Shown here: piece by piece, positions 22,236-64,000 of the stretch | How the letters are laid out: each line of letters starts with the position of its first letter | How positions within the stretch are numbered: the first letter of the stretch is position 1 | Assembly: GCA_008933805.1 (NCBI GenBank) | Contig: WBUH01000005.1 | Span: 128,822-192,821, forward strand | Origin: Bacteroidota bacterium | GTDB lineage: Bacteria; Bacteroidota; Bacteroidia; UBA8524 | DNA length: 64,000 bases | Direction of reading: 5' to 3' | The notes under the pieces: model-generated | Database searches by the model: none | The model's input: only the letters and a program-made list of their open reading frames with translations | Told to the model about the DNA's origin: nothing | Made by a program: the position numbers and the translations under genes

Positions 22236-22263
22236 CTTTGCACCCCCTCCAATTACAGGGCAA

Positions 22264-22860
22264 ATGCAAAAACAACTCCCTGTTTACAAATTAAAAATTA
22301 CCGATGAAGACCCTGTATCAGGGGTTGATTACGTAGCATTGGTAGATGTGCCCGCCACCGAATTTAATTGGGTGGCATTTAACCGCCAAAAACCCATGCA
22401 GTTTAAGGTGCAGCACGCCGAGCAACGCATTATCTGCGGTGCGCTGATGGTAGCCAACCTGCCCATTTACCGCAAAGAGGGCGACCGCGAGTACTACGTG
22501 GTATTTGATGAGCCTACCATTAAAAGTGTTTGTTATAAATACTTCCGCAACCGTTACACCGCCAATGTAAATGTAATGCACAACCCGCAGCAAAAAGTGG
22601 GCGGCGTGTACATGGTGCAAAGCTATTTGATTGACAAACAAAACGGCGTAAATGCCCCTGCTTACTACCCCGAATTGCCTGACGGCAGCTGGTTTGGATG
22701 TTTTAAGGTGGATAACCCGCAAGTGTGGGACAACTACATAAAAACAGGCAAACTGCAAGGGTTTAGCGTGGAAGGGATGTTTGGCCAAATGCACGTAACC
22801 GATGCATCGGAAATTATTATCCAACAATTAATTGAGATTATCAAAAATGAAAATGACTAA
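22264..22860 (+). CDS. Hypothetical protein, first gene of the phage head-like module (possibly prohead protease / XkdF-like)
   Basis: The ORF is confident. The function is tentative and comes only from its position ahead of the scaffold-like and capsid-like genes. Confidence 0.3.
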   Translation: MQKQLPVYKLKITDEDPVSGVDYVALVDVPATEFNWVAFNRQKPMQFKVQHAEQRIICGALMVANLPIYRKEGDREYYVVFDEPTIKSVCYKYFRNRYTANVNVMHNPQQKVGGVYMVQSYLIDKQNGVNAPAYYPELPDGSWFGCFKVDNPQVWDNYIKTGKLQGFSVEGMFGQMHVTDASEIIIQQLIEIIKNEND

Positions 22861-23440
22861 AGAAAAAATCCTGAAGGCCATTGGTACCGATGCCTGGGAT
22901 AAAATTAAAAAACTGGCCTTTGGCGAACAGCCCGCAGGCGAAGTAACCGAAACAATGCTGACCGACGGCACTGAAATTATGTACGAAGGCGCGCTGGCAG
23001 TAGGCACATTGGTGATGGTAATTACCCCCGAAGGTGAAATGCCCATTGCCGACGGTAAGTACGAATTGGAAGACGGTACCCGCTTCACCACCAAAAAAGG
23101 AGCGGTAGCAACCTTAGCCGCAGGCGGCGGAAAAGGCGTGAAAACAGGCTCGAAACCACAAACGGGCGCAATAAACCAAGCATCAGACCTGAAAGAGAAA
23201 ATAGAAATGATGTACCGACAGCACGAAGAAAACGCGGTGGAGTTGGCCGCTATAAAAAAGCAATTCAGTACTATGCAGGCCGATAACAAAGCCTTGCGCC
23301 AAAACCTGAGCAAAATTAGCCGCGTACTGGAAATACTGGTAGAAAACACCCCCGACGAGCCTATCCGCAACCGCCAGTTTGCCCATAACACCAATAACCC
23401 CACCAAAGCCGAGCGCATCGCCGCATTACTGAAAAGCTAA
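22847..23440 (+). CDS. Coiled-coil protein, putative capsid scaffold-like protein
   Basis: Starts at MKMTKEK and overlaps the previous gene by 14 nt. The C-terminal half is a long heptad-rich helix (EKIEMMYRQHEENAVELAAIKKQFSTMQADNKALRQNLSKISRVLE). Size and position are typical of a scaffold. Confidence 0.35.
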   Translation: MKMTKEKILKAIGTDAWDKIKKLAFGEQPAGEVTETMLTDGTEIMYEGALAVGTLVMVITPEGEMPIADGKYELEDGTRFTTKKGAVATLAAGGGKGVKTGSKPQTGAINQASDLKEKIEMMYRQHEENAVELAAIKKQFSTMQADNKALRQNLSKISRVLEILVENTPDEPIRNRQFAHNTNNPTKAERIAALLKS

Positions 23441-23567
23441 TTCATTGCTTTTGGGAATTGGCCTTTAACCCTTAGCAATGACACTATGCTTTCATCTGCT
23501 AAAAGCCAAAGGCTAACGGCTAATAGCGATTAAAAATACTATCAACTCAAAACGATACAACACAACA

Positions 23568-24539
23568 ATGAAACACAACTCAATTCCCCGATTGCTTAAG
23601 CATTCGTTTGCATACAGCATCAGCTCGCTGGATAACTATACCGAGCAAAACGTAGTACCCTTGGTAACCAAATCACTGTTTGGCAGCCGCACCGCCGAAT
23701 TGTTCCCCGTACAAACAGGTATCAAATCAGCCGAGGTCATCAACATCATGGACGACCAAGTGTATTTTCAAAGCGGCACAGGATGCGGCTTCACCGCCAG
23801 CGGCGATACCACCTTCACCCAACGCACCATCACTGTAGGTAAAATCAAAGTGAATAAAAAATGGTGTCCCGATGAATTGGAAAGCAAATGGACACAATTT
23901 TTGCTAAACGCAGGCAGCTACTACGAAACCCTTGTGCCCGAAGAAGCCCTTGCCGATTTTATGACCGCTATTATTGCGCAGGAAATGGAAAAAGCTTACT
24001 GGCGCGGTGATACCACCAGCGGCAACCCAAACCTGAACAAATTTGATGGTTTTGTAAAAATTATCGACGCTGCCGGAACTGCCGTAGCAGGTAACACAAG
24101 CGCGCAAACTTCTATCACAGTGGCTAACGCCGTGGCAATACACAACAATATCCTTACTGCATTGCCCGCAAGTCTTTTAGACAAAGACGATGTGGTAATC
24201 TTAGAAGGATGGGACACTTTCCGCAAATTGATTTTAGGTCTTCAAGACGAAAACAACTTCTTTTACGATGCTGCCGGACCTGATAATCACATTGCAGGCG
24301 AATTGAGGTTGCCCGGAACTAACATTCGTGTGGTGGCTGTTCACGGTCTAAACGATACCAACCGCATTTTTGCAGGCCGCAGCAGCAATTTCTTCATCGG
24401 CACTGATTTGCTGAACGATTTTGAAAACTTCAACATCTGGTACAGCAAAGACAACGACGAGGTGCGCATGAAGGCCCGTTGGAAAGCCGGCGTACAAGTA
24501 GCATTCCCCAACGAAATTGTACAATACACCAACGCATAA
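23568..24539 (+). CDS. Putative phage major capsid-like protein of 323 aa
   Basis: Size, Gly/Thr/Ala-rich composition and position after the scaffold-like gene. No motif-level proof is available without a profile or structure search. Confidence 0.35.
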   Translation: MKHNSIPRLLKHSFAYSISSLDNYTEQNVVPLVTKSLFGSRTAELFPVQTGIKSAEVINIMDDQVYFQSGTGCGFTASGDTTFTQRTITVGKIKVNKKWCPDELESKWTQFLLNAGSYYETLVPEEALADFMTAIIAQEMEKAYWRGDTTSGNPNLNKFDGFVKIIDAAGTAVAGNTSAQTSITVANAVAIHNNILTALPASLLDKDDVVILEGWDTFRKLILGLQDENNFFYDAAGPDNHIAGELRLPGTNIRVVAVHGLNDTNRIFAGRSSNFFIGTDLLNDFENFNIWYSKDNDEVRMKARWKAGVQVAFPNEIVQYTNA

Positions 24540-24656
24540 TAGCTGTTTGCTCTTGGCTCTTGGCAATTAGCTAAAAGCCAAATGCTAATTGCCAAAAGCA
24601 GCCAACCCAAAATAAAAATCAAAACTCTTAAAACATAAAACTTAACAACTAAAAAT

Positions 24657-25169
24657 ATGTCATGTGCATTAACCACAGGCTTCACGCTGGATTGCCGACA
24701 AAGCAACGGCGGTATAGAAGCCGTATATTTTACAGAAATAGCCAACAAGGCAACATTAACTGCTGCAAGCGGTGTCATCACTGCATTCACATTGGCAGCC
24801 ACTAAAAAATTCTTCAAATACGAGTTGAGAAAAAAAACAGGGCAGTTGGAACAAAACATACAGGTAAACAACGAAAACGGCACTGTATTTTACGAACAAA
24901 CTCTTACCGTTAAATTAGATAAGTTGGAGGTAAATAAACGCAACGAAATTTTGTTGCTGGCCAAAAACAACCTGATGGTAATTGTGAAGGATAACAACGG
25001 CAAATACTGGCTGGTGGGCGAAACCCGCGGTGCTTTGTTAAGTGCCGGAAAAGGAACCACAGGAACCGCCTTTGGCGATATGAGCGGCTTTGAACTAACC
25101 TTTACAGGTGAAGAGCCCGAATTGGCCAAAGAAGTTGACTCAACCCTTATTGCTACATTAACAGCATAA
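24657..25169 (+). CDS. Putative phage tail-tube / major-tail-like protein of 170 aa
   Basis: Small beta-rich protein directly after the capsid-like gene (VIVKDNNGKYWLVGETRGALLSAGKGTTGTAFGDMSGFELTF). Tentative. Confidence 0.3.
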   Translation: MSCALTTGFTLDCRQSNGGIEAVYFTEIANKATLTAASGVITAFTLAATKKFFKYELRKKTGQLEQNIQVNNENGTVFYEQTLTVKLDKLEVNKRNEILLLAKNNLMVIVKDNNGKYWLVGETRGALLSAGKGTTGTAFGDMSGFELTFTGEEPELAKEVDSTLIATLTA

Positions 25170-36785: not shown

Positions 36786-37664
36786 ATGAAACGCTCGGAC
36801 TTTATAAAAACAGTAGGACTTGTTATGGCAACCACCCCTTTGATGGGCCTGAAAGATTGGCACAAAATAACTGAGAATGCAGAACCCACCGCAAAAGCAC
36901 CGCTTTTGTTCATAGGGCATGGCAATCCAATGAATGCCTTGTATAACAATACTTTTACCCAAACCCTAACTAAACTGGGCCAAACGGTTGAAAAACCCAA
37001 AGCAATATTGGTGGTTTCTGCCCATTGGCTCACCAACGGAACATGGGTAGCCACTACTGCAAAGCCTGAAACCATCCACGATTTCGGAGGATTCCCCCAA
37101 GCCTTGTTTGATGTGCAATACCCTGCACCTGGCTCTCCAACGTTTGCTACAGAAACACAAACGCTATTAAAAGATAAAACCACAGTTCAAGCGGATACAA
37201 GTTGGGGACTTGATCATGGTGCCTGGACTGTTCTAAAACACATATACCCCAATGCCGATGTACCCGTTTTTCAATTAAGTATTGATTACTCAAAGCCTCC
37301 CCAATACCACTACGACTTAGCAAAATACTTAGCTAAACTAAGGGACAAAGGGGTAATGATTTTGGGCAGTGGCAACATTGTACACAATTTGGGCCGTATA
37401 GATTGGAACAACCCCAACACGGGCTATGACTGGACTATTGAGTTTGACGAGGCGGTAAAAAAACATATTAATGATGGTAACCACCAGCCTTTGATTGATT
37501 ACATCACCCTTACTAAAGGAGCTAATTTGGCCGTACCCACTAACGACCATTATTTGCCTTTGCTATATACATTGGCCTTGCAGGATGCAAAAGAAAAGCC
37601 CTCGCATATATACGAGGGCAATGAAATGGGTAGCATTAGTATGCGTAGTGTATTGTTTAGCTAA
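36786..37664 (+). CDS. 4,5-DOPA dioxygenase extradiol (DODA / YgiD) family protein with a Tat-like signal
   Basis: Conserved LFIGHGNPMNAL, SAHW and LDHGAW motifs of class III extradiol dioxygenases. Confidence 0.75.
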   Translation: MKRSDFIKTVGLVMATTPLMGLKDWHKITENAEPTAKAPLLFIGHGNPMNALYNNTFTQTLTKLGQTVEKPKAILVVSAHWLTNGTWVATTAKPETIHDFGGFPQALFDVQYPAPGSPTFATETQTLLKDKTTVQADTSWGLDHGAWTVLKHIYPNADVPVFQLSIDYSKPPQYHYDLAKYLAKLRDKGVMILGSGNIVHNLGRIDWNNPNTGYDWTIEFDEAVKKHINDGNHQPLIDYITLTKGANLAVPTNDHYLPLLYTLALQDAKEKPSHIYEGNEMGSISMRSVLFS

Positions 37665-37665
37665 A

Positions 37666-40095
37666 CTATACTACTACCGACTGGTCTTCTATCACTTTTA
37701 CTTTTTGTTGGGCACTACGGATATCAGCCTCAGTTACAAACACCTTCAAAGGTTCAGGGCTGTGCTGGCGGGCAATAATTTGGGTACTACCGATTTGTGG
37801 CGCACTGATTTGGGGTGCTGAAACCGAAGGTGCTGAAGGTGCTCCTCCCCCGCCACCAATACTTCCTCCACTTGACAATACCTTATGAGCTTGTGCCACT
37901 GCTGAGGCTATTTGGGCGGATATGGCCGCAAATTTTGCAATACCGGCAATACCCCCTGTAGCAACGTTATCAGGTGTCGGCGCATTAGTATTGGAAATGG
38001 CACTACTTATCGCCTTTGCGGAATCAATGCCGATTTTTACTAAGGTTATTGCCTTCTCAATATCGTTTTGAGTCTTGGCATTCTTAATCAGGTTTTTATT
38101 AACGGTATCAATTACATCCAATCCATCTTTAGCAGCCTTTTCTGCAAACTCCCACTTCGCCTTGGTAATTGCTTTCTCGCGTTCAATTTGGGCAAGAAGT
38201 CGGGCATTCTTTTCTTCTTCAATAGCAGTGTCTAGTTCATTCTCTGCCTCCTGTTGTTGAACTTTTAATGATGCCTCATCTTCGATTTTCTGAGCCCGTA
38301 ATGCTTTTTCAATGGCATCGTACTCTTCAACGCTCAGTTGGTTATTGGTTTTCTTTTCCAACTCGGCAGCAAGCAGCTCATCATAATGCGTTTGTAAATC
38401 TGCCTTTTGCTGTGCGTAGAAATCCTGAGTAAGGCTTTGCTTACGTCTAAGAGCTTCCTCCTCAGTAATCTCCTTATCTTTCAAACTCTTCTCCAGCAGC
38501 TTAAACTCGTTCTCAAGGCTTTTCCGTTTATTTTCCTCGTTACGTTTTACCCACTTCTCATTTGCCTCTAAAACCGCCTTCTGTCTTTCTTCTCGCTCCT
38601 TTTGCTCTTTTGCATCCCACTCTTTGTTAATGTCATTTACCCGCTTTTCATGCAGTTTTTTCAACTCTTCAAGAGCGTTAGTATTGTCCTTGTAGCGTTC
38701 CTTTTCCCCAGCATATTTCAACTCTTCCTCTGCCAACTCTTTCTTCCTGCCTTCCTCCATATTAGCTAATCGGAGTTGCTCATAATCCTGCTCTTGCTTT
38801 GCCTTGCTTTTGGCTGATTCTATGTCAATATTTTTTAAGCTGAGTTCAAATCCAGCCTTTTGGTTTTCAAACTCCAGTAGCTTTTCCTTAGACGCATCTA
38901 TAGCCTCTTGACCCTTTTTCTCTACTTCTTCTGGATTAAAAAACTGTGAAGCAGCAAAATCCGCTAGTTTCTCACGCAAGTTTAACTCTTTGTCAAACAA
39001 ACTCGCTATCTTATCAACAGCAGCCAACACAGGTGATAAGCCTATCAAAACAAACTCCAATACACTTTTTAAGATTCTTTTATTTCGTGTTTCTGCTTCA
39101 ATTTGAGCCGCTAATACCTTTTCTTGGTTTTCAATGTCTGCTTTACCTGTACTAATTACAACCCCTAATTGCTCTATCTTAGTTTTAAGTATAGCCCGCT
39201 CACTTTTCCCTTTTTGTCTTTCAATATTCTCTTGACCTTCAAGGCTAGTAAAGGTTTTCTGAGCATTATCATACAGCTTTGTGCCGGTTTTTAAATTCTC
39301 TTTTTGCTCTGAACTAACTCCGCTTATAGAATTTTTAATCTTGTCCCAATAAGAAGCTAAAGTGGCTACTGCTGTAATAATAATCCCAATAACATTTGCC
39401 GACATCACTTTATTAAGCACCTTAAAGCTACCCGTAGCGCCTACCAATGAACCTGAAAGTTTTTGATTAGCATCGCTTCCCTTTTGAGAAGAACTTACCG
39501 ACTCTTTATGTAAAGCATTTGATAGCTTCTGAATAGAGTTTTGTATGGCTTGAATTTTTGATAAATTACCAATAATTTGTGAAAGTCGACCTGTTTCCAA
39601 ACTAAACAATTCTGCGGCAGCTTTGGCACCTTCAAATCCAGTCTTAACATTTTCGCCAACATATATCATTTTGTCAACATTGGGTGTCAATGAACCAAGT
39701 TCATTTATTAACTTATTAGTTTGAGCAATCTTCCTATTGTACTCTCCAACTTTAATAGCTGCTTTGTTAAATTCTTCGGAACCAATCTCTTGATTTTTCA
39801 AAACAACATTTAAATCTTCAATAGAATAGTTCAGGTCAGCTAAACTGCCACTAAGCAAAATAATATCCTTTACTGATTTAGCAGACTTTTCAACATCTAC
39901 TAATGCTCTCTCGTAAAGCATAATTTTGTCATTGGCAGTGCTAATGCTTTTACCTAAACTCAAAAAAGCTTCTGAACCAATATCAGCTTTACTAACTTGT
40001 TCTTTCAATAAATCCAGCCAAATTTTCAAATCCCTTAGATTTGATTCTGCTAATTCAGTATTTATATCGAAATTAAACTTAAAATCCTTTTCCAT
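37666..40095 (-). CDS. Long coiled-coil protein of 809 aa, putative tape-measure-like protein
   Basis: Almost entirely heptad-rich helix, with one hydrophobic segment (VIGIIITAVATLASYW) and a Gly/Ala/Ser-rich C-terminus. It is the last gene of a three-gene operon. Tentative. Confidence 0.35.
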   Translation of the reverse strand: MEKDFKFNFDINTELAESNLRDLKIWLDLLKEQVSKADIGSEAFLSLGKSISTANDKIMLYERALVDVEKSAKSVKDIILLSGSLADLNYSIEDLNVVLKNQEIGSEEFNKAAIKVGEYNRKIAQTNKLINELGSLTPNVDKMIYVGENVKTGFEGAKAAAELFSLETGRLSQIIGNLSKIQAIQNSIQKLSNALHKESVSSSQKGSDANQKLSGSLVGATGSFKVLNKVMSANVIGIIITAVATLASYWDKIKNSISGVSSEQKENLKTGTKLYDNAQKTFTSLEGQENIERQKGKSERAILKTKIEQLGVVISTGKADIENQEKVLAAQIEAETRNKRILKSVLEFVLIGLSPVLAAVDKIASLFDKELNLREKLADFAASQFFNPEEVEKKGQEAIDASKEKLLEFENQKAGFELSLKNIDIESAKSKAKQEQDYEQLRLANMEEGRKKELAEEELKYAGEKERYKDNTNALEELKKLHEKRVNDINKEWDAKEQKEREERQKAVLEANEKWVKRNEENKRKSLENEFKLLEKSLKDKEITEEEALRRKQSLTQDFYAQQKADLQTHYDELLAAELEKKTNNQLSVEEYDAIEKALRAQKIEDEASLKVQQQEAENELDTAIEEEKNARLLAQIEREKAITKAKWEFAEKAAKDGLDVIDTVNKNLIKNAKTQNDIEKAITLVKIGIDSAKAISSAISNTNAPTPDNVATGGIAGIAKFAAISAQIASAVAQAHKVLSSGGSIGGGGGAPSAPSVSAPQISAPQIGSTQIIARQHSPEPLKVFVTEADIRSAQQKVKVIEDQSVVV

Positions 40096-40113
40096 AAAAC
40101 AATGCTTTATTAA

Positions 40114-43053
40114 TTAATTTAATTTAAACCACTTTTCCCCGTTGCTCACTATTACAACTTTATCGTACTGTGAAGTCAGGCTGTATGATGCAGCCCCATT
40201 GATAAGCTCGCTTTCAAACCCATCGATATAAATAATATCACTTGAACTGTCGGTTTTTATAATTTCAAATATTTTACCGTTACGGTTTTGAGCTGTGGGT
40301 AAATTCACGGTAATCTCTCCATCGGTTGCATCACAAAACAACGTTCGGACAGCATCCGTAAGCGTGTAGGGAGAATCATCGTTCACGATAGAAACAGCAT
40401 CCCCCATCAACGCGGTAAAATACTTTTGGTTATTGATGTACAATACCCCGGGCTCAGTAACGGTGATGCCGCTACTGTTAATCAGTGTTACGTCTTGCAG
40501 CCCTGCCGAAATAAAATTACCCCCGCCGCCAAGCACTGTTATTCGCTCACTGCCGCTTAATACATTGTTATTAGTACCTGTAAGTAGCACCGAAGCAGAG
40601 GTGGTATCAATGGTATTAAACCAACCGGTAACTACCCGTGGTCCGTTATCAGGAGTGCCGGCAGGTGCAGCAGTGCCGCCTATTGTAGGTATTGTGTAGG
40701 TAGTTTCATTGGTTCCGAAAGTACCGCGCCCGCCATTAACCCTTGTACGGTTTTGCAATGGAGCATCAAACTCAAGTACTTTAATAAACTGGCACTTGGT
40801 AACTTTATTAAAAACAGGGTCGTAATTCTCAACTTTTAATAATCGGTAATACGCATCTTTAATAAAATAATATTTACGAAAGGACAGACTGTTAATATCA
40901 GCGGGTGTAAGATAAAACCAGCCTTCCACCAGTTTACTGTTAACGTCGGTTATCTCCTTAATTTGTGCATACCAATACCTTGTGTATAGGTTTTGGTTAG
41001 TGTATTCAAACAAGCGTTCTGATGTAGATTGATAATACACTTCAAACGGCGGGGCAAAACTCAGGTCAAATGTGCTTGAGTAGGGGTCGTCCAAATGACC
41101 GCTGTAAGGGTATTCATCAAATGGATAAGGACTAAAACCTGATGCATCAAATTGCCAACGTTCACACTCCTTTAACCCTCCGTAATACAGCAGGCGTATT
41201 TTACTTGCTTTTGAGGTAACAGGGGTTTTGTTGTCAGAAAAAGCTATGTAAGGCAAAACCCTTGAGTTAGGGTCGTTCAGCTCCTTAAACAAAGGTGTTG
41301 GGGCAAAAATTATCTCTATTTTTTTGGTGCTTTTTACAAAATCATTGTCAATTTTCAGCTTGTAGTCGCCATACGTGCGGTCAAAATTATTTTTATAGGT
41401 TTTATTCAATAAATCCCCGTCATCAGCATATTTAAAATAATATTGCCCTGCATCTAATGCCGACATCGGACTAATTGTGAACTCCTTACTTATATCCAAT
41501 TTATCGGTCCAGTCAGTAGACTGTCCGGTATAATAATCTGCCCTTGGTTCAATAATTAAATCCTTTTCTTTATCAGCGTTAGGTTCGGTATATAAATTAA
41601 AAGCCTTAATGATAGAGCCTAAAAAGTCACGTTGCTTAATCCCTGTCGGGATGCAAGAGTTAAGCGAAACTTCCTCCCCTTCGCTTACCTTAGCACTTGA
41701 TACTCCATTGGCAAAAAAAGTATTAGAAGTGGCTGCTGTAATTAGCTTATAACCGGGTCGTTTCTCTGATAAATATTTATATCCGTTATTAAGTACCAAA
41801 TAATCCAGCCGTATCGGGGCAACAAAAATTTGTTCGCCTTCTTTAATAGTTACCTCGTTTGATTGTAAAACCGCCGTTTTTTGGATACTGGTGATATTAT
41901 GACCCACCGATACAGGGTGTGTTTGTGGTGCAAAATATACGTTTGAGTTTACTGAACATAAGTGTTTATCAACTCCGGATACCCTGTGAACAATACTTAA
42001 AACAATATTAAAGTCGTTGTAATTATAATTATAGGTGGTAAAAGAGGTATTACGCACCTTACAATCAACGCTGGCTTTAAACTTATATTTACCTGTTTTA
42101 TTGCATGTAAATATTCCCGTAGTATTATCGTATTGAAATGAATTATCAAAATAGGGACTGCCGCTGTCGATATCAAAAATTATCGGCGAAACTCCCGAAA
42201 AAGAACCCGGGTCAGGAAGGAAATCAGTAGTTAATTCTGCTGAAAGTCCTGCGTAAAACAATCGGCTTTCAACTTCATCTTTGCTTAATAAAAACTGCTC
42301 GCTATTAAACGGTACAATCAGCCGCTTAAAAAATTCAGAATTAAAAAAATTACTGGTATAGGTAAATCCCGCCTTTTCAAAAATCTTATCAAGGTATTGT
42401 TTCACGTATATGGCAGGCCTAAACTGCTCAACACCCCAATGATCTTCGGCTGTGCCGGGGGTATATCGTTTTTGGTAGCCGTAATCAACCATCGGATACA
42501 CATATCCTTTACCCAACGCAAACGGAACTGTTACACCATCCTCATAAATTTGGGTTTCCCAAGAGTCAGCAATATTTCCACGGCTATAAATGTGGTCAAA
42601 CTCACTCATGTCAAGGTCGGTCAATTCACCTTTTACCACATTGCCCAAACTGTCTTTTTGATTATCAATGCTGGCAAACAAATTGCCTACCTCACCGTAA
42701 CAAACAATTTTATATTCAATCTTATTACCCTGCTCCACCACAATGTCCTTCAACTGGCAATAGCCTTTTAATTGGGTCAGGCTGTCAATAAAAATAATAA
42801 CGGGGGCTTTTTTATTGGGGTTAAAGTGTTTCACTGCCTGTCCCGTGTCAGGCTCACTTAAATCCACATTCACATCAAAAAGGTACCCGAACAACAGATC
42901 ATTGTTTGTGCTGCCGGGTATTTCAATCGTAAGAGTACGGTCGGTTTTTCGTTGCTCAGGGTTTTGTATGTCCACCAACTGCTTGGTAATATTCAAACTC
43001 ACCTCTTTCAGCAAATCAATCTGTGTACTATTAATAACTATTTGTGTTCTCAT
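40114..43053 (-). CDS. Large beta-rich protein of 979 aa, putative phage tail / host-specificity (Tal/fibre)-like protein
   Basis: No signal peptide. Overlaps the upstream gene by 4 nt. The call rests on size and position only. Confidence 0.3.
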   Translation of the reverse strand: MRTQIVINSTQIDLLKEVSLNITKQLVDIQNPEQRKTDRTLTIEIPGSTNNDLLFGYLFDVNVDLSEPDTGQAVKHFNPNKKAPVIIFIDSLTQLKGYCQLKDIVVEQGNKIEYKIVCYGEVGNLFASIDNQKDSLGNVVKGELTDLDMSEFDHIYSRGNIADSWETQIYEDGVTVPFALGKGYVYPMVDYGYQKRYTPGTAEDHWGVEQFRPAIYVKQYLDKIFEKAGFTYTSNFFNSEFFKRLIVPFNSEQFLLSKDEVESRLFYAGLSAELTTDFLPDPGSFSGVSPIIFDIDSGSPYFDNSFQYDNTTGIFTCNKTGKYKFKASVDCKVRNTSFTTYNYNYNDFNIVLSIVHRVSGVDKHLCSVNSNVYFAPQTHPVSVGHNITSIQKTAVLQSNEVTIKEGEQIFVAPIRLDYLVLNNGYKYLSEKRPGYKLITAATSNTFFANGVSSAKVSEGEEVSLNSCIPTGIKQRDFLGSIIKAFNLYTEPNADKEKDLIIEPRADYYTGQSTDWTDKLDISKEFTISPMSALDAGQYYFKYADDGDLLNKTYKNNFDRTYGDYKLKIDNDFVKSTKKIEIIFAPTPLFKELNDPNSRVLPYIAFSDNKTPVTSKASKIRLLYYGGLKECERWQFDASGFSPYPFDEYPYSGHLDDPYSSTFDLSFAPPFEVYYQSTSERLFEYTNQNLYTRYWYAQIKEITDVNSKLVEGWFYLTPADINSLSFRKYYFIKDAYYRLLKVENYDPVFNKVTKCQFIKVLEFDAPLQNRTRVNGGRGTFGTNETTYTIPTIGGTAAPAGTPDNGPRVVTGWFNTIDTTSASVLLTGTNNNVLSGSERITVLGGGGNFISAGLQDVTLINSSGITVTEPGVLYINNQKYFTALMGDAVSIVNDDSPYTLTDAVRTLFCDATDGEITVNLPTAQNRNGKIFEIIKTDSSSDIIYIDGFESELINGAASYSLTSQYDKVVIVSNGEKWFKLN

Positions 43054-44255
43054 AAACGTTGGCGGTAATTAGGTTGTGCTAATTGAATAGTAAGATTTAG
43101 GCTAAACAGCTTTTTGTTGGCATACTTTTTTACCTCGTAACTATCTTCAGTTATAGTTACTGCAACCGTTTTCTTTGGGTCTGACGGATCAATTTGCCAA
43201 TACACGGCCGGACTACCTGCCAGCTCTTGCAGCCAAACACTTTCTTCCTCCGTTATCCAGCCTGTATTTATTGAGTATTGCTCCGTTTCAACAGTATCAA
43301 AGTTTACTGTACCCCGTGCATACGAGTTATTTGTCCAAGCCATCGTATCCAAATCTGTATAGCCTGTAAACTTTTGGTAACCGCTGCGCTTAAACTGTGT
43401 AGTTTGCTTATGGCTGCCCGTAAACGTATAGCTGTCAAACCGTCCTAAACGGTTCAGAAAGTGCAACCTGAATAACTGATGGCGACCACAATCCCTATCT
43501 ACCACAAACGTGAAAGTCTCGCTAACTGGGCTGTTATCGCTTGCTAAAAAAACCACCGTGTAGCGTACCACCTCACTGGTAATGATACTGCCGCCCAAAT
43601 TGTATGGGCCGCACATAAAATCAAGCGAGTAGCTGATGCCTTGGTCGCTGCCTGAATACAACGTATGAGTAACTGTATAGGCATTAATCACTCCGCCCGC
43701 TGCATTGTATGTAGTTACCAACGCTTTAGACACCTGTTTACCAATAGAGATATGGCTCAGCGATGCGGCCTCATCCTCCCTTATTTTTAATGTGCGAGGC
43801 GAGTTTGTAAGCAGTCTCCTTTGTGTACCGCTTAACAAATCATAGTCGGTATAATCAAAGTCAATCCAATCAAGGTATTTCAACGCTGCATTAAATGCGT
43901 ACCCCGAAGCCGAAACCATACCGCTGGCAATAGGAAGGTTGTTTATTTCTTCGGTAAACTCAACCTTATAATCAGCCATTGTACCCCTTGCCACCTTAAA
44001 TCCTGTTGCACCTTTAGCAAGATTTTCAATTACAGGATTGTAGCGGGGTTCAAGCATACGGTGCACATCCGCTTGTATGTAGTTACCGTGCGGCCACTTA
44101 TCATATTTAAGTGTTTTTTTCAGCGTGCCTGCATGGTACACCTTAACTACCATTTTAAAATATTGGGTGGCCGCCAACGTGCTGCCCACAATAAACATCA
44201 TATCATTGTACACAGGGGTGAGTGCCTGCGGACGGTTGTGAAGTGTAATTGCCAT
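43050..44255 (-). CDS. Hypothetical protein of 401 aa, first gene of the tail-like operon (possibly a distal tail / baseplate-like protein)
   Basis: ORF is confident. The function is tentative. Confidence 0.3.
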   Translation of the reverse strand: MAITLHNRPQALTPVYNDMMFIVGSTLAATQYFKMVVKVYHAGTLKKTLKYDKWPHGNYIQADVHRMLEPRYNPVIENLAKGATGFKVARGTMADYKVEFTEEINNLPIASGMVSASGYAFNAALKYLDWIDFDYTDYDLLSGTQRRLLTNSPRTLKIREDEAASLSHISIGKQVSKALVTTYNAAGGVINAYTVTHTLYSGSDQGISYSLDFMCGPYNLGGSIITSEVVRYTVVFLASDNSPVSETFTFVVDRDCGRHQLFRLHFLNRLGRFDSYTFTGSHKQTTQFKRSGYQKFTGYTDLDTMAWTNNSYARGTVNFDTVETEQYSINTGWITEEESVWLQELAGSPAVYWQIDPSDPKKTVAVTITEDSYEVKKYANKKLFSLNLTIQLAQPNYRQRL

Positions 44256-44302
44256 AAAATTTTTTCTTTTTAGTTTGATTTGAAAAAATTTGTTCGCGGC
44301 GA

Positions 44303-44842
44303 GTGACTCAAAGACTATATATTATACTTATGAAATTCTGGCCTCAAAAAAAGTTTGTTATAGAAAGTGAATTATCTACTGGTGAGATAAAAGAGCGATT
44401 AAGAAAAGTAACTCATGAAGTAAAACCACAACGGATATTCCCCCGCAGGATCTTTAAAAAAACAACAGAGAATTTTGAAGGTGAAATTGAGTATGACCGA
44501 TTCGTAATAACGCCGGTGTATTATATCATCAATGGTTTTTTCGACCATAGCGACAGAGGTTACATTGTTCTCGAAGGCGAAATCAAGGCTTCAACCGATG
44601 GTAGCATAATAAACGTAACCACACAATTCAGTTACGGCATAAAACTATTTCTGCGAATAATGTACATATTAGTGGCTTTTATATTGGTTGCTTCACAATG
44701 GGCAGACCAAAAAAACGGTGCAAAAACATCCTTGCAAATGCTTGGTACAATATTGGGTATCATTCCATCGCTCGGTTTGTTTTTTATGCTGCTACGCCTT
44801 ACAAAAAAGAGTAAAGCTGCTTTTACCATGCTCTTTAAATAA
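44303..44842 (+). CDS. Hypothetical membrane protein
   Basis: Two C-terminal transmembrane helices. Divergent from the tail-like operon. Confidence 0.4.
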   Translation: MTQRLYIILMKFWPQKKFVIESELSTGEIKERLRKVTHEVKPQRIFPRRIFKKTTENFEGEIEYDRFVITPVYYIINGFFDHSDRGYIVLEGEIKASTDGSIINVTTQFSYGIKLFLRIMYILVAFILVASQWADQKNGAKTSLQMLGTILGIIPSLGLFFMLLRLTKKSKAAFTMLFK

Positions 44843-44948
44843 ATTCCTCATAGATAACAGCCTAGCCTCTCTTTTCACTTATCTAATTAATAGAAAAGAT
44901 TCCATCCCCTTTGCAGAAACAATCCCCGCTGTTTCCAATTAACAGCCG

Positions 44949-45599
44949 ATGAACATAGCAAAAAATTGGAACCAGATTTCTATAGGGCAGTTTCAGCAAA
45001 TAAATGCCGCCATTAAAAACTACCCTGATAATGCCATCACCCAAGCGGTTTGGATACTTAGCGCACTCACCGAAAATACCCGAGATGAGTTGCTTGCCCT
45101 TGATTTTACAAAAGATTTTAAACCCCTGATGCGTCAACTGGATTGGATACACAGTACCGCCCTACCCACCCAATTACCCAAACAGTTTGAATTGGAAGGC
45201 GAAAACTACCAATTGGTGTATGATATGAAACAGCGTACCACCGGACAGTTTGTCGATTTGGCTCATTTCACAGCCGACCCTGAGCAAATCATTCCCAACC
45301 TGCATTTCATACTTGCAGTGCTGTGCATACCTGTAGGTCAAAAGAACCATGCCGATGGCTTTGAACAACGGGCAAAGCTGTTTCAGCAAAAGCTAAGCAT
45401 AGCCATCGCATACCCAATTGCCACTTTTTTTTTGAAGCTTTGGGTCGACTCGTTGCCGCATATCCTAACTTATTTGGAACAACAAGCCGCCCCGAAGAAG
45501 AAGTGGTGGATGAAGATAATTGGTTCACTGCGCGCTACGGGTGGCTGGCTACGATTGATTCGGTTGCGGAAAACCGCACCCAATGGGACTTCTACCTGA
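44949..45599 (+). CDS. Hypothetical protein of 216 aa
   Basis: ORF only. Confidence 0.4.
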   Translation: MNIAKNWNQISIGQFQQINAAIKNYPDNAITQAVWILSALTENTRDELLALDFTKDFKPLMRQLDWIHSTALPTQLPKQFELEGENYQLVYDMKQRTTGQFVDLAHFTADPEQIIPNLHFILAVLCIPVGQKNHADGFEQRAKLFQQKLSIAIAYPIATFFLKLWVDSLPHILTYLEQQAAPKKKWWMKIIGSLRATGGWLRLIRLRKTAPNGTST

Positions 45600-45674: not shown

Positions 45675-46226
45675 ATGAGCAATATTAATCAGCTACTTCG
45701 CCAAGCGTTTGAAGAGTTTGCAACCACTATTGAAACCGAGGCTCATAAAATATTGGCCGACGAGGGATTAGAAAAGGTGATACCCCAAACTGAAATCACC
45801 GATACTGCATTTGGAGTGAGTTATGAGTTTAGCCTTAGCGGACTTAACCCTTACATTGAATATGGCGTGAAAGGGGTTTTTTATACCCGCAAAGGGGCTG
45901 AAAACAGCCCCTTTCAATACAAACATTTAGGGCCATCGGAAAAAATGATTGACAATATCTTCTCATGGACATTGAAGAAAGGAATATTCGCCAAGCCTAA
46001 GAAGGCATCCCTTAAAAACAAACAGCCGAAAGAAGAAACAAGTAAAACAATTTACGACCGACAAATTGCATTAACGTTTGCCATAGCCCGAAATGTAAAA
46101 AAGCGGGGAATAGCACCCAAAGGGGTATTAACACAATTATTTACCGAAGAACGATTAAAAGAATTGTCTGAAAAAGTATCTGATATTGTCTGCAGAGAAA
46201 TTACCATCCAAGTAGCAAAACTGTAA
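45675..46226 (+). CDS. Hypothetical protein of 183 aa
   Basis: ORF only. Confidence 0.4.
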   Translation: MSNINQLLRQAFEEFATTIETEAHKILADEGLEKVIPQTEITDTAFGVSYEFSLSGLNPYIEYGVKGVFYTRKGAENSPFQYKHLGPSEKMIDNIFSWTLKKGIFAKPKKASLKNKQPKEETSKTIYDRQIALTFAIARNVKKRGIAPKGVLTQLFTEERLKELSEKVSDIVCREITIQVAKL

Positions 46227-46316: not shown

Positions 46317-47147
46317 ATGAAAACCATTTACTTATTGATTGGGGCGGCCGTCTTTGCCTCTTGCTCACCTACTTCGCACGTACCAACAATGCCAAGCGAA
46401 CCTAATTTTACAGGCGCATTGCAGGCACAAGCAACAGGCGGGGTAGCTACAGACCACATTGAATTACAAGGTGCTGTCTCTGTTCTACCCTTTTTAGGTG
46501 TTACTTACGATTATTATTGGGGTACAAAAGGTATAAACCAACAGGAATATGGAGCTAATTTATTTTTCCCGGTAAACAACCAAAAAACGTGGTTTATTTC
46601 TTTTTCGGCAGGAAAGGGGAATGGTATTTTTAATGGGGATTACAAAACAAGCAGTGCATTAGTAGGTGCAGAAAAAAGTTATGCAATTGATACAAAATTC
46701 AATTCTGAATATCTCCAAGCATCCACTTATTATGTCGATAAAAGCAATACTGATGTAATAGTAAAATACTCAATAGCTTTTAAACAGGAAAACATTAGTT
46801 ATGATAGATTTAAGGTTGCTTATCGTAGTAGGTCCGGTCAAAGCTATTACACCTACAACATTCTCAGCGAAGCCGAAAACGCCCGAACAACAATAAAAAC
46901 TGCCTTCATCGGAGTAACAGTAGAGCCAAAAAAGAGGCCGCTTATCATGCAATTTCAATTAGGTGTAAGGGACGTTACACGAGGATTTAAAACCACAATC
47001 ACAGCGATGAGTGGAGGCACAAGTATTAAATCTGGTATTGATATTCTTAACGCACAACTACACCCGCTTTTCGAACCCTTTATGTTCAATATGACCGTTG
47101 GTTTTAAGCTTGATTATTTCAAACACCGTACTAAAAAGAGAATATGA
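46317..47147 (+). CDS. Lipoprotein, member 3 of the paralogous family
   Basis: Lipobox FASCSP. Shares the ATDHIELQGAVS block with the next gene, whose version is SPTHIEFQGSCAI. Confidence 0.5.
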   Translation: MKTIYLLIGAAVFASCSPTSHVPTMPSEPNFTGALQAQATGGVATDHIELQGAVSVLPFLGVTYDYYWGTKGINQQEYGANLFFPVNNQKTWFISFSAGKGNGIFNGDYKTSSALVGAEKSYAIDTKFNSEYLQASTYYVDKSNTDVIVKYSIAFKQENISYDRFKVAYRSRSGQSYYTYNILSEAENARTTIKTAFIGVTVEPKKRPLIMQFQLGVRDVTRGFKTTITAMSGGTSIKSGIDILNAQLHPLFEPFMFNMTVGFKLDYFKHRTKKRI

Positions 47148-60462: not shown

Positions 60463-60634
60463 TTTAATTACAGTGATTTTAAAGTGTAATAATACTCCAT
60501 TCTACTATTTAATACAAATAAAGCGATGGTTTAATACCCTTCATTGTTAAAAAAGTAAACGCCTAAAATGTAGAGATATACATTACTTTATAATTTTTTT
60601 TGAAACAAAAACATCCCGTGCCAATTACAGGGGG

Positions 60635-61030
60635 ATGATACTGATAAATAAAGGCACCAACAACTTGGTTATCTTCACTCTGAAGGAAAAAACCACCCGC
60701 CCCAATCCTAAATACCTCTTCGAGTTTAGTAACTCTCAAACTAACGAAAGTATTACTTGTATCGCAGCCGATACCTCTGACTACCCCGAGCGTTATAATA
60801 GTTTTGAGATAGTAGAAATTACCAGCCCCAGCCCGCTGCTAGCACAGGTAGAGCTTACCCCCTCAGGTTTTTGGGAATACAAGGTATATGCTCAAGACAG
60901 TGCTACAAACTTACAACCCGCCAATGCCGACGAACTGGTTGAAACAGGGTTAGCCTACGTGGTGGGCACCGCTGAAACCACCTATACTTATAATGACCAA
61001 CCCACTAACGCATTTATATACAATGGATAA
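60635..61030 (+). CDS. Hypothetical beta-rich protein of 131 aa (phage-like locus 3)
   Basis: ORF only. Overlaps the next gene by 8 nt. Confidence 0.35.
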   Translation: MILINKGTNNLVIFTLKEKTTRPNPKYLFEFSNSQTNESITCIAADTSDYPERYNSFEIVEITSPSPLLAQVELTPSGFWEYKVYAQDSATNLQPANADELVETGLAYVVGTAETTYTYNDQPTNAFIYNG

Positions 61031-62276
61031 GCAAAAACACTTTTTTACAACCTTGCAAGTGCCTACGTGGCATAAACCGCCCCGATTTAAGGAAAGCCGC
61101 CGTTTCGATTGGGTTAATTATGGTGAAGCGAACGATTACCCCGACTATCTGATAAATCTTTTTAACGGTTCGCCTACCCATCAAGCCATTGTGAGCGGCA
61201 AAAAAGATTATATTTTTGGTAAAGGGGTAGAAATACCCAATAGCCCAAACACCGCTGATGCTGCTAAACTGCAACAGTTAATTCACAGAGCCAACCGCTT
61301 CGAATCGTTGAACCAATTGCTTGAAAAATTGATTCTAGATTATGAGCTTTTTAATGGTTTCGCTGTAAAAATCTACCAAAACATTGTTACAGGTAAGATT
61401 AGCGAGATGTACCACGTAGATTGGGCTACTTGCCGTATCAACGAAGACGCATCGGTAATTTACACTTCAAAACAGTGGACTGAGCAACAGTCGCTAACGA
61501 ACAAGTTTGCTGGAAGTACCCGTCAACCGGAAGACTTAAGAGGCCTCCCCGCTTTCGATATCAACGTTCCTCAGCGTGAAAGCATTTTGTATTTCCGTGA
61601 GTATAGCCCACAAATGAAGGTGTATCCATTACCGGGTTATTTAGGTTGCAATGCTTCCATTGAAACCGAAATAGAAATCAGTAACTTTCATCTAAACAAC
61701 ATAAAAACAGGGTTTTCTGCAGGCACCCTGCTTACATTTACTAACGGTGTGCCCACCGAAGATGAGCAACGGGATATTGAACGTCAGGTAAAGCGCAAAG
61801 TGGCGGGAACGGATAATGCGGGTGAAATTATATTATACTTTACAGACGGTGTAGAAAGTACCCCTCAAATATTACAACTGCGCCCCAACGATCTTGATAA
61901 ACAGTACGACCAACTTAAACAAACAGTAATGGACACCATTTTTGTGGGTCATAAAGTTACCAGCCCAATGTTGTTTGGTGTTAGGGCACCCGGCCAACTG
62001 GGAGGAAGAAATGAACTAAGGGAAGCTTACGAATTGTTTCAAAACACCTACGTCAACAAACGCAGGCAAACTATTGAGCAATTGTTGAAAAACCTTGCTG
62101 AAACCAATGGCATCAGTACGCCATTATGCCTTACTCCAACCGAACCGATCGGTTTAGGAATGTTGTTGAGCGAGCAGGACATTAGTGAAGTACTTACTTC
62201 TGATGAAAAACGTCGCTACTTGGCACAAATAGGTTTCCCTATCACTGTCAGCGATCCATCAATTGCAGATAATTAA
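61023..62276 (+). CDS. Putative phage portal-like protein of 418 aa
   Basis: Size and context only. No P-loop is present, which argues against a terminase. Tentative. Confidence 0.3.
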   Translation: MDKQKHFFTTLQVPTWHKPPRFKESRRFDWVNYGEANDYPDYLINLFNGSPTHQAIVSGKKDYIFGKGVEIPNSPNTADAAKLQQLIHRANRFESLNQLLEKLILDYELFNGFAVKIYQNIVTGKISEMYHVDWATCRINEDASVIYTSKQWTEQQSLTNKFAGSTRQPEDLRGLPAFDINVPQRESILYFREYSPQMKVYPLPGYLGCNASIETEIEISNFHLNNIKTGFSAGTLLTFTNGVPTEDEQRDIERQVKRKVAGTDNAGEIILYFTDGVESTPQILQLRPNDLDKQYDQLKQTVMDTIFVGHKVTSPMLFGVRAPGQLGGRNELREAYELFQNTYVNKRRQTIEQLLKNLAETNGISTPLCLTPTEPIGLGMLLSEQDISEVLTSDEKRRYLAQIGFPITVSDPSIADN

Positions 62277-62317
62277 TCCATTACAAATTTTCTTACACTA
62301 TCAATTAGCAAATCCTT

Positions 62318-62893
62318 ATGGAACAGGTCTATTTTATATCCGCCGACAGGCTGAAAGAAGATACCGTGATTAATGAGAACACGGATAATAAGTTAATCTC
62401 ACCCACAATACTCATGGTGCAGGATATTTATATACAGGGTATTATCGGCACCTCATTATACAACGAGTTGAGAACTCAGGTAAAGGCCGACACTGTAACA
62501 GCCCTTAACCAAACATTGCTTAATGACTATTTACAACCGGCTATAAAACACTATTGTATGGCCGAACTGTGTCTGCCGCTTACGTATAAGTTCATGAATA
62601 AATCCATCGTAACAAAAAATAGCGAGAACAGTGTTACTGCCTCACCGGAACAACTAAGTCAGATAAAAAACTATTACCTGAACCATGCGGAATGGTACGC
62701 GAAACGTATTGTAAAATACCTGCAGCAAAATCAATCTAAATACCCTTTATGGCTGAGCGGAAATACTACTATTGATGCCATTCACCCAAGAATCAACACT
62801 TATCACACAGGTATGTTTTTGGGAAATACTCGTGGGAATTCATTCTCAACCTCATTACCTATTGATAACGGCGAAAACAATTGTTGCGAATAG
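62318..62893 (+). CDS. Hypothetical protein of 191 aa (phage-like locus 3)
   Basis: ORF only. Confidence 0.35.
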   Translation: MEQVYFISADRLKEDTVINENTDNKLISPTILMVQDIYIQGIIGTSLYNELRTQVKADTVTALNQTLLNDYLQPAIKHYCMAELCLPLTYKFMNKSIVTKNSENSVTASPEQLSQIKNYYLNHAEWYAKRIVKYLQQNQSKYPLWLSGNTTIDAIHPRINTYHTGMFLGNTRGNSFSTSLPIDNGENNCCE

Positions 62894-62962
62894 TTATGAA
62901 TGAAAAGAGAATAAAAAAAGAAAACATCCAAAAATTACTCAATTATCTAGAAAAGAAAGACC

Positions 62963-64000
62963 ATGCAGTTTCAGACAAAAAATCAGGTAATAACAAAACT
63001 AAGGCAACTGGCTGAAAGTCATTTACTAGTCCGTGGGTTTGGCTATGGTGACCGTTGGGAACTTGAATCAGCTATGACCAAAGTGGATGGTACAACAATC
63101 GGACTCACCCATCCTTCAAAGCAGCCGTTTATGTGGGTTACCCCCATAATAGCCCGTGTAACCGAAGGTAGTCTCTTTTATGATTTTGAAATAATTGTAG
63201 GCGACTTGGTGAAACGGGATGAAAGTAATGAACTGGAAGTGGAGAGTGATACTTTACTTATTTGTTTGGACATCCTCTCAAAACTAAACGATGAAAGCTA
63301 TGAATGGGCTCTTTCAAAGCAAAGTAATCTTCAACCCTTTACCGAAAAGTGGGACAGCGAATTTACGGGCCACATTATGAATGTATCGCTGGAGTTTATG
63401 TTTGATTATGACTATTGTCAAGTTCCATTTACACGTCCGGATGAAGACATCACTGCATTTCTTGCGGCTACAGGCATTGACGATGAAACACAAATATTTG
63501 CCATTACTTATTTAGTAACGCAACTAAAAGAAAACGGACTTTGGAACAAAATGCACGCTCTATACCCGTTTGTAGGCGGTACGGCAAATAGGCACAGTAT
63601 AAACCTAAAAAATCCGGCTCAGTATAAAATAACGTGGAGTCCAACGGGAGTGACCCACAACGCAAATGGTATAACCGGAGACGGAATAGCCGGCTATGGC
63701 GACACCGGTTATATTATCGCCGCTGCAAACAAAGACAACTTCCATATGTCAGCTTATATAAGGAATGATGTTAGTGCTGGGGCTAAATGTGCTATCGGAG
63801 GCACTAGTGACAGTAATGTAATTCAACTCTTACCGTTTCAAACGGGAAATCTCTTCCAATCTTCAATAAACCAAAATACTGCATCAACAGCTTCAAATGT
63901 TTCTTCGAAAGGAAATTATATAGGTAGTAGACTTGCCCCAAATCGTTCAATTGCGTATAAAAATGTCACAAAATTATTTGAAAACACCACTGTGAGTACT
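62963..64000 (+). CDS. Hypothetical protein, at least 346 aa, 3' end outside the window; phage structural-protein-like
   Basis: I translated this by hand from the ATG at 62963. There is no stop codon before the window end. The conserved-looking N-terminal domain is followed by a Gly/Ser/Thr/Asn-rich region typical of fibre or adaptor proteins. Confidence 0.4.
   Translation, partial: MQFQTKNQVITKLRQLAESHLLVRGFGYGDRWELESAMTKVDGTTIGLTHPSKQPFMWVTPIIARVTEGSLFYDFEIIVGDLVKRDESNELEVESDTLLICLDILSKLNDESYEWALSKQSNLQPFTEKWDSEFTGHIMNVSLEFMFDYDYCQVPFTRPDEDITAFLAATGIDDETQIFAITYLVTQLKENGLWNKMHALYPFVGGTANRHSINLKNPAQYKITWSPTGVTHNANGITGDGIAGYGDTGYIIAAANKDNFHMSAYIRNDVSAGAKCAIGGTSDSNVIQLLPFQTGNLFQSSINQNTASTASNVSSKGNYIGSRLAPNRSIAYKNVTKLFENTTVST

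Follow-up and report, generated by a model that had tools for sequence, protein, structure and literature searches.

We analysed a 64,000-nt stretch of the genome of a Bacteroidota bacterium (assembly GCA_008933805.1, contig WBUH01000005.1, positions 128,822 to 192,821 of the forward strand; hereafter the window), in which a minus-strand operon of three open reading frames (ORFs) encodes proteins of 401, 979 and 809 aa (T401, T979 and T809). A first-pass annotation, made from the sequence alone, had noticed this operon and its likeness to phage tail genes, but missed the main point: it is no stray tail operon, but part of a vertically inherited, selected and dispersed phage-derived gene set. 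The window holds a nearly complete set of Inhavirus-like structural genes that is chromosomal, dispersed among host genes, syntenic in at least six related Bacteroidia genomes assembled from metagenomes, under purifying selection and provided with a conserved upstream element. Our confidence in the identity of these genes and in their domestication is high. We consider it probable that the window genes, the tail-tip and tape-measure module included, form a domesticated, multi-locus set for a phage-derived particle. An actual function in gene transfer is a more tentative suggestion, made with low to moderate confidence.

The operon opens with T401 (44255..43050, minus strand), continues with T979 (43053..40114) and closes with T809 (40095..37666), each ORF starting with ATG and each exactly as first listed. 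T401 and T979 overlap by 4 nt (43050-43053) in an ATGA, with the ATG of T979 over the TGA of T401 (the junction reads CGTTTATGAGA), and 18 nt separate T979 from T809; both spacings had been given before and can be read directly from the sequence. All three products are annotated as hypothetical (KAB2916953-55; locus tags F9K23_07055, 07060 and 07065), and a Pfam search gave no significant match for any of them. The last protein had been thought to resemble a tape measure, and this was borne out: T809 matches the tape-measure family phrog_24676 (E 4.9e-11) as well as phrog_1538 (E 0.0019), and over residues 219-368 it shares 31% identity with tape-measure proteins from the Cellulophaga siphophages phi17:1 and phi18:1. 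Its centre (residues 376-660) is highly charged (52% E+K+R+D+Q), its C-terminus is rich in Gly, Ala and Pro, and it has three hydrophobic segments (~231-250, 343-365 and 715-734) rather than the single one reported earlier. With this PHROG similarity, these hydrophobic segments and this charged centre, T809 is a predicted tape-measure-type protein, albeit one without a Pfam tape-measure domain. Its orthologues are 689-968 aa long, the coiled coil being very variable in length and the C-terminal ~150 aa almost invariant; this length range is compatible with a ruler role, of which it is not a test.

T979 is a predicted tail hub of the Tal/gp27 type. Its hub part (residues 1-270 and 461-760) has the multi-domain gp27-like fold and is interrupted by an inserted C1q/TNF-like jelly-roll (~271-460). 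Beyond the hub part, a Gly-rich linker leads to a beta-helix-like segment (805-884) and then to a knob at the C-terminus (885-979). The last 100 residues resemble C-terminal domains of E. coli, Microcystis and Thermocrinis phage proteins, and T979 is probably also the central fibre or receptor-binding protein. Among orthologues the C1q-like insert is the least conserved region (mean identity 38% versus 70-73% in the hub domains), which fits a recognition domain. T401 combines two N-terminal Ig-like beta-sandwich domains with a conserved, beta-rich C-terminal domain (residues ~244-400). Its gene is next to that of the hub, in the place expected of a distal tail protein, and T401 is a tail-tip protein specific to this phage family. 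Comparison of T401 with Dit structures gave no match, nor did a tBLASTn search against cultured phages. Sequence and profile searches of the PDB with T401 and T979 returned only spurious antibody matches or weak C1q matches.

The Ig-like domains of T401, together with cargo proteins of the type IX secretion system (T9SS) encoded elsewhere in the window (11.3-15.7 kb), could be taken to mean that the operon makes a surface structure unrelated to phages, for instance an adhesin, gliding protein or T9SS cargo. We give this reading practically no chance. A T9SS C-terminal sorting domain is missing from all three proteins and none of them matches an adhesin family; the same Pfam search does detect Por_Secre_tail in other window proteins. 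Moreover, the operon shows full-length homology to genes inside phage morphogenesis modules, described below, which together with the hub fold of T979 effectively refutes an adhesin or gliding identity. The tail-like nature first proposed for the operon stands.

Homologues of T979 (29-38% identity over most or all of the length) occur on viral-sized contigs. One of these, the 29.9-kb contig L002, encodes in order TerS, TerL, proteins of 214, 192, 442, 37, 996 and 685 aa, an S78 protease, proteins of 226, 314, 172, 49 and 146 aa, the portal, a 52-aa protein, a DUF6712 protein, a 155-aa protein and LamG fibres. The window proteins pair one to one with these: the counterpart of T401 is the 442-aa protein (E 4e-15), and that of T979 is the 996-aa protein (E 1e-155). 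The 685-aa protein, which occupies the T809 position, matches tape-measure PHROGs and is detectably similar to T809 orthologues, and the genes at this position in L002 and in the cultured phage P12024S match three other tape-measure PHROGs. Using the names given below to the window genes, the order u216-u183-T401-T979-TMP (tape-measure protein)-protease-scaffold-MCP (major capsid protein)-h172-u131-portal-DUF6712-f155 recurs in the viral and metagenomic contigs checked (IMG/VR and metagenome; more than 20), at identities down to 25-30%, with the clade 2 subgroup described below as the exception. The closest relative of T979 outside the host clade (38% identity) lies on a 38-kb contig, L163, that carries early genes, TerS, TerL and then the same order; the uncultured examples include GCA_024712245.1 JANIFF010000125.1 and many IMG/VR uncultivated virus genomes.

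The cultured distant relative is Nonlabens (Persicivirga) phage P12024S, which we take to have siphovirus morphology. It is collinear with these contigs: TerL is gp37, and the positions of u183, T401, T979 and the tape measure are taken by gp42, gp44, gp45 and gp49, respectively. The protease, capsid protein, portal and DUF6712 protein are gp01, gp02, gp06 and gp08, respectively. Homologues of the operon were found in phages of Bacteroidetes hosts, as the first-pass annotation had suggested looking for, in P12024S and, for T809, in Cellulophaga phi17:1 and phi18:1. The source lineage is one of phages with ~30-38 kb genomes related to P12024S (Inhavirus). The operon's order, with the tape measure last, had been called non-canonical; this is right with respect to textbook sipho- and myoviruses, but the same order is native to this phage lineage (more than 20 contigs, and P12024S), so a tape-measure gene after the hub is no anomaly of the operon. 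Separately, one 89,284-bp metagenome contig (JGI25908J49247_10000003; L103, L104 and L152) carries three portal copies ~35.8 kb apart and seems to be a 35.8-kb phage genome of the Inhavirus-like lineage that was assembled as a concatemer.

When the window was searched with the L002 proteins, three loci were mapped. Locus A, the head module (22264..25169, plus strand), comprises a prohead protease (22264-22860; 48% identity to L002, E 4e-51, with a PHROG match to head maturation protease), a scaffold-like protein (~22832-23440; 26%), the major capsid protein (23568-24539; 36%, E 2e-51) and h172, a 170-aa protein (24657-25169; 36%). Locus B contains, besides the tail operon, two genes on the plus strand that diverge from it. 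The first, u216 (44949..45599), is 29% identical to the L002 214-aa protein (E 1e-14); its homologue follows the large terminase gene in the phage relatives, and it is inverted here with respect to the tail operon. The second, u183 (45675..46226), matches phrog_29822 (E 2e-5) and stands at the position of the L002 192-aa gene, a protein that the u183 orthologue in genome L009 matches at E 1e-3; u183 would be a second phage-derived gene, by weak homology and an assignment that is partly positional.

Locus C, the portal module (60621..64000, plus strand), consists of a motif described below, u131 (60635-61030), a short-form portal (61023 or 60993 to 62276; Pfam Phage_portal E 1.8e-9, below the gathering threshold), a DUF6712 protein (62318-62893; DUF6712 match E 5.9e-25) and a fibre-like ORF that starts at 62963 and is still open at the window end. 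The locus C proteins show 30-36% identity to L002, and the portal is 27% identical to that of P12024S (E 3e-33). On the near-identical contig L081 the module ends with a fibre-like gene of 404 aa, followed by a RelA/SpoT gene. Portals are short in the window (417 aa), its close relatives and clade 2 (416-427 aa), the L009 copy having at least 497 aa; those of free phages have 561-662 aa (L002 18550-20538, P12024S gp06), so that the chromosomal forms are without the C-terminal 150-250 residues.

In all, 13 of the 15 large phage morphogenetic genes are in the window, TerS and TerL being the missing two; these are Inhavirus-like structural genes in the lineage-specific order, distributed over three places. 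The head module lies 13 kb and the portal module 16 kb from the tail operon. Between loci A and B are genes for an ECF (extracytoplasmic function) sigma factor, DUF4139, Fic, SDR, 2-oxoacid dehydrogenase E2, purA, fur and LigB, and between B and C those for two lipoproteins, iscSUA, glyoxalase, AhpC, SnoaL, a caspase-like protein, a tryptophanase-like lyase, DUF2207 and LemA. The operon itself has LigB/DODA, fur and purA on its T809 side, and on its T401 side a block of unknown genes and then iscA, iscU and iscS. The first-pass annotation was right about the fur, purA and LigB/DODA side and about lipoproteins on the other (a pair, at 46317-47923); it did not recognise u216 and u183 as phage-derived. 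Its statement that no phage genes flank the operon does not hold, as u216 and u183 lie just upstream on the other strand and the head and portal modules are in the same window. The co-occurrence with a head module for which it proposed to search was found: head and portal genes of the same phage lineage share the window, and in L009 all modules lie within 16 kb.

The T401-T979-T809 cluster is present on contigs of seven GTDB species-representative genomes, and also on JGI contigs of 174 and 616 kb. Five of the seven are labelled as Bacteroidia metagenome-assembled genomes (MAGs), two of them complete chromosomes; the other two have non-Bacteroidota labels, likely through misbinning or contamination. 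Odd labels on contigs with the cluster (L004, L008 and others) include 'Agrobacterium sp. 719_389', 'uncultured Burkholderiales bacterium' and 'Oscillatoria amoena NRMC-F 0135'. The cluster always adjoins LigB and/or fur-purA, and the wider arrangement differs among genomes. In L009 (OZ244977.1), portal and u131 diverge from the protease-scaffold-MCP-h172 block; LpxR and a 281-aa gene follow, and further on u183 and u216 diverge from T401-T979-T809, which lead on to fur and purA. The 616-kb contig has no portal in the neighbourhood of the tail cluster, and on the 174-kb contig a 6-kb stretch with FabD, TrmB and others separates T401 from u216 and u183. When genomes are ranked by amino-acid identity, the element genes give the same order as the host genes. 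Between L009 and the window, identity is 86% for purA, 88% for the protease, 82-84% for the capsid protein, 80% for h172 and 82% for the portal; overall, head proteins are 66-88% identical to their L009 orthologues.

Close homology and synteny to bona fide phage contigs might also be expected of an active temperate phage, or of a phage satellite, with an unusual genome arrangement. The gene arrangement makes this highly improbable: housekeeping genes (iscSUA, purA, fur, 2-oxoacid dehydrogenase E2 and others) lie between the modules, the interleaving varies among genomes while the phage genes stay, and divergence tracks that of host genes. Neither integrase, replication or lysis genes nor the contiguous genome with terminase, replication and lysis genes that marks an autonomous Inhavirus-like phage were found in the window or the related loci.

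The modules also share an upstream element. In an alignment of upstream regions, the ATGs of the protease, u216 and u131 genes each have CCAATTA[A/C] 6-7 nt upstream, and 12 nt upstream of this is a [G/C][A/C]AACAA-like box. The three copies, all on the plus strand, are CCAATTAC at 22249-22256, just upstream of the head module, CCAATTAA at 44935-44942, preceding u216, and CCAATTAC at 60621-60628, preceding u131 and opening the portal module. T401 has a variant (44256..44294, minus strand) made of C-x-x-ACAAA, 12 nt, CAAACTA and an A-rich leader of 17-19 nt, which is kept in nine of nine clade-1 loci while the sequence beyond it, upstream, is not conserved. The pattern CCAATTA[A/C]-N5-8-ATG has exactly three matches in the window, each at the first codon of a module (shuffled mean 0.35). 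When an ORF of 60 aa or more was required to follow it, the composite pattern occurred in the clade-1 loci at the four module gene starts only, and the shorter pattern yields one extra match, at an unassigned 135-aa ORF in L079. The CCAATTA motif is not enriched in the window overall (9 found versus 10.7 expected), its position alone being significant. The elements are conserved between genomes whose more distal upstream sequence cannot be aligned. They are not present in the phage relatives or in clade 2, and in the phages the protease, u216, u131 and T401 genes are internal to one operon.

Read as GAAAC-N16-AATTA with the ATG 6-7 nt downstream, the element would fit an ECF-sigma-type promoter giving leaderless mRNAs. 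A search for the regulator identified none: the two ECF sigma factors of the window had no phage homologue and the sigma-like gp33 of P12024S had no homologue in the window. A sigma-70 promoter scan of the three-gene operon found nothing above chance.

We then consider selection, using dN/dS (Nei-Gojobori; window versus L004 and versus L007) for the tail genes and amino-acid identity only for the head and portal genes. The values against L004 and L007, respectively, were 0.067 and 0.051 for T979, 0.087 and 0.060 for T401, 0.12 and 0.12 for u216 and 0.07 and 0.07 for u183, compared with 0.00-0.05 and 0.01-0.06 for housekeeping genes. Four of the five tail genes thus fall at 0.05-0.12, and T809 at 0.10-0.30. 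In comparisons of the window with L005, L006 and L009, synonymous sites have reached saturation, and to keep ORFs of 400-1000 codons intact at such divergence requires purifying selection. Since their orthologues are intact in all related genomes examined and dN/dS is 0.05-0.09 for T401 and T979, the three operon genes are not chance ORFs. T809 behaves differently in L004 (13043-15064, P0160), where it is ~61% identical at a dS of 0.87, the flanking genes being 95-100% identical at a dS of 0.1-0.3. The L004 allele is mosaic, with an N-terminal half resembling the alleles of distant clade members and a C-terminal half nearly identical to the window, and the excess dS over the flanking genes implies allele replacement or intragenic recombination. 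The sole disruption seen among the 13 structural ORFs is in the capsid gene of L009/L003 (3496-4466, OZ244977.1), where a 1-nt deletion in an A-run (GAAATGGAG to GAATGGAG) divides the gene into two ORFs. Each half has 82-84% identity to the window protein, and the gene is intact in L078; a long-read assembly error is the probable cause, and real decay to a pseudogene could also account for it.

These data bear on whether the genes are a functionless, decaying remnant of an old prophage, scrambled by rearrangement and not yet lost. The scattered modules, the missing terminase, lysis and integrase genes, a portal of 417 aa versus 561-662 aa in phages, the split capsid gene and the fast evolution of T809 would all be natural in such a remnant. 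Nevertheless we judge it improbable, because the 13 structural ORFs are otherwise intact despite saturated synonymous sites, the dN/dS of four of the five tail genes is near housekeeping values (T809 reaching 0.10-0.30), and identity is 82-88% for capsid, protease and portal in a comparison that gives 86% for purA. A conserved element gained at the start of each module is likewise hard to square with decay.

The window and 412 kb of related loci yielded no gene for an integrase, a terminase, replication or lysis. When these host loci and the window were searched with TerL and TerS of L002, L161, L163 and P12024S, there was no match. The other unannotated ORFs of the window (498-aa, 345-aa and others) have no PHROG match, so none of them is a hidden terminase, and exact-protein look-ups past the window end returned short Logan contigs only. 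A gene transfer agent (GTA) built from this set would need a terminase encoded elsewhere in the genome. The missing terminase would also suit a domesticated device that is headless or otherwise not a GTA, for instance a tailocin-like bacteriocin or a particle that delivers protein or other cargo and does not package DNA, and the fast-evolving C1q-like recognition domain of the hub is as expected of a targeting device. We regard such a device as unlikely. Conservation within the set is highest in the portal, prohead protease, scaffold and capsid genes, which argues for a portal-bearing capsid, sensible only with DNA packaging; the set is not a tail-only one devoid of capsid, portal and protease genes, as the head and portal modules are conserved. 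Known tailocins have no head genes.

Related chromosomal versions of the set exist in other Bacteroidota. One group (clade 2: L084, L086, L087, L089, L090 and L121, with L090 on a 218-kb contig) has a compact 13.8-kb cluster (L090 847-13804) made up of a 166-aa gene, T401, a 380-aa tape-measure-like gene, T979, protease, scaffold, MCP, h172, u131, a 416-aa portal, DUF6712 and a fibre gene. Beyond the cluster lie two genes with no known function, and then acyl-CoA dehydrogenase and DnaE. In three members, insertions of 2-5 kb lie between protease and scaffold. The intergenic leaders of clade 2 consist of CCAACTCA-type 8-mer repeats, and its capsid proteins are 92% identical among members. A further version is L161 (3880-17419 on a 428-kb contig of the Chitinophagales MAG GCA_033762815.1), where T401-like and T979-like genes are followed by a 1028-aa gene. 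TerS and TerL (the latter 34% identical to that of L002) are 5 kb away, past aroC (chorismate synthase) and a DUF1295 gene, an arrangement which suggests that a terminase can persist at a separate locus. L161 may be another dispersed, possibly domesticated copy, with its terminase retained. Together, clade 2 and L161 suggest recurrent chromosomal capture of the morphogenesis genes of this phage lineage in Bacteroidota.

We propose that the morphogenetic genes of an Inhavirus-related siphophage, ancestrally ordered as TerS, TerL, u216, u183, T401, T979, TMP, protease, scaffold, MCP, h172, u131, portal, DUF6712 and fibre, became fixed in the chromosome, where they would have been cut into three loci and interleaved with housekeeping genes. 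T809 would be the tape measure, T401 the family-specific tail-tip protein adjoining the hub, and T979 a trimeric hub closing the tail tube, whose variable C1q-like domain and C-terminal fibre would recognise surfaces. The set is passed on vertically under purifying selection, each transcription unit with a common promoter-like element. While homology, fold, synteny, selection and the motif are shown by the data, what follows is inferred: co-expression of the genes may yield a tailed, DNA-containing, non-replicative particle that serves the host; for such a particle a GTA-like viriform would be the most likely function. The structural genes are, as in a viriform, fixed in the chromosome, vertically inherited and selected (seven genome loci), and the conserved element at the starts of all four units would point to common control if it acts as a promoter. 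It is possible, though we remain doubtful, that this is the first GTA-type viriform of Bacteroidota: an independent domestication of an Inhavirus-like siphophage, with a regulon of at least 13 genes, an ECF-sigma-type promoter (GAAAC-N16-AATTA) and leaderless transcripts, and with kin domestications in at least two other Bacteroidota lineages.

Several points weigh against the proposal of a domesticated particle. For T401, structure comparison gave Ig-like matches only. The tape-measure call for T809 relies on hidden Markov model matches, and its coiled-coil/hydrophobic class is prone to compositional similarity; the gene also has an elevated dN/dS (0.30) and allele replacement among near-identical strains, and the capsid gene of L009/L003 is split as described. 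Because the upstream motif was counted in the very sequences that had served to derive it, its exclusivity is no more than suggestive, and the real evidence is its conservation and position; the element might act as a promoter, as a translational element or otherwise. With no terminase found in the window or the 412 kb of related loci, DNA packaging is unsupported, and no lysis or release gene was identified in the window or related loci. Finally, every host genome is a MAG, and the particle set is known from its genes alone.

Other features of the window were noted alongside. An intrinsic-terminator-like hairpin (37598..37619, minus strand) with a 9-bp stem, 6 of them GC pairs, followed by TTTTCTTTTG, lies ~50 nt 3' of the T809 stop, within the 3' end of the convergent LigB gene. 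Between T401 and u216 is a 179-aa ORF (44303-44842) with no family match. It is 91% identical in the closest strains (dN/dS 0.16) and weakly kept (30-33%) in L005 and L006, its place in other clade members being taken by two small, seemingly unrelated ORFs; it may be a lineage-specific accessory or regulatory gene. The two lipoproteins adjoining u183 (46317-47147 and 47144-47923) are adjacent paralogues, each with a signal peptide and then Cys, and the first is far more divergent in the near-identical strain L004 (76% versus 94-97% for neighbours). Between the tail and portal loci, a 1168-aa protein (52605-56111) has a C-terminal caspase (Peptidase_C14) domain; it is fast-evolving (64% identical in L007 versus 93-98% for neighbouring genes) and may be related to defence or death. 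The largest repeat in the window (TRF score 245) is a C/A-rich tandem array of heptamers at 22003-22243, upstream of the head protease. It is G-poor, with the heptamers CCGACAT, CTGACAT, ACCAACA and CCATCAA in a 72-nt super-period repeated 2.3 times. Similar runs lie upstream of modules in other genomes, and because short ones also precede host isc and fur we did not treat them as specific to the element; such runs may be common throughout the lineage. No tRNA gene occurs in the window.

Cases of this kind bear on the frequency with which phages turn into particles that serve their hosts. Here the putative phage structural regulon would be new to its phylum and independently derived; it is clearly selected, and its free-living phage relatives can be identified. 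The compact and dispersed chromosomal forms offer a natural series from prophage to organelle-like host system. In addition, a large family of 'hypothetical' phage tail proteins gains a function, and a phage lineage with a non-textbook tail order is documented.

Among known systems, the nearest are P12024S/P12024L (Inhavirus) and the uncultured ~30-38 kb contigs, which have homologous structural genes in identical order. These phages are autonomous, with terminase, replication and lysis genes in one contiguous genome; the window set, in contrast, comprises morphogenetic genes only, in three chromosomal loci, with u216-u183 inverted, the portal cut to ~417 aa and new common upstream elements. 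The tail tip of canonical siphoviruses (SPP1, TP901-1, 80alpha, Cellulophaga phi18:1) likewise pairs a tape-measure-type protein with a Tal/gp27-fold hub that has a C-terminal extension. The canonical module, which phi18:1 has, runs chaperones, TMP, Dit, Tal, whereas the window operon runs T401, T979, TMP, has no gpG/GT-like chaperone genes upstream of the tape-measure gene, and gives the hub a partner, T401, without a match to Dit structures.

GTAs are known from few lineages, mostly Alphaproteobacteria. Those of the RcGTA type of Alphaproteobacteria and those of Bartonella, Brachyspira and Faecalibacterium (FpGTA) also consist of a chromosomal head and tail gene set that is vertically inherited under purifying selection, and like them the window set is without replication and integration functions, is spread over several loci and may be under common control. 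It would be of independent origin, from a different phage lineage in another phylum, and it differs from RcGTA in its tail gene order and in being known from genes alone. In the literature covered, GTAs come from Alphaproteobacteria, Desulfovibrio, Brachyspira, Methanococcus, Bacillus (PBSX) and Faecalibacterium, with none reported in Bacteroidota (PMC12946183). The 'genome' of RcGTA is itself multilocus, and in this the dispersed set of the window parallels it (PMC5026251).

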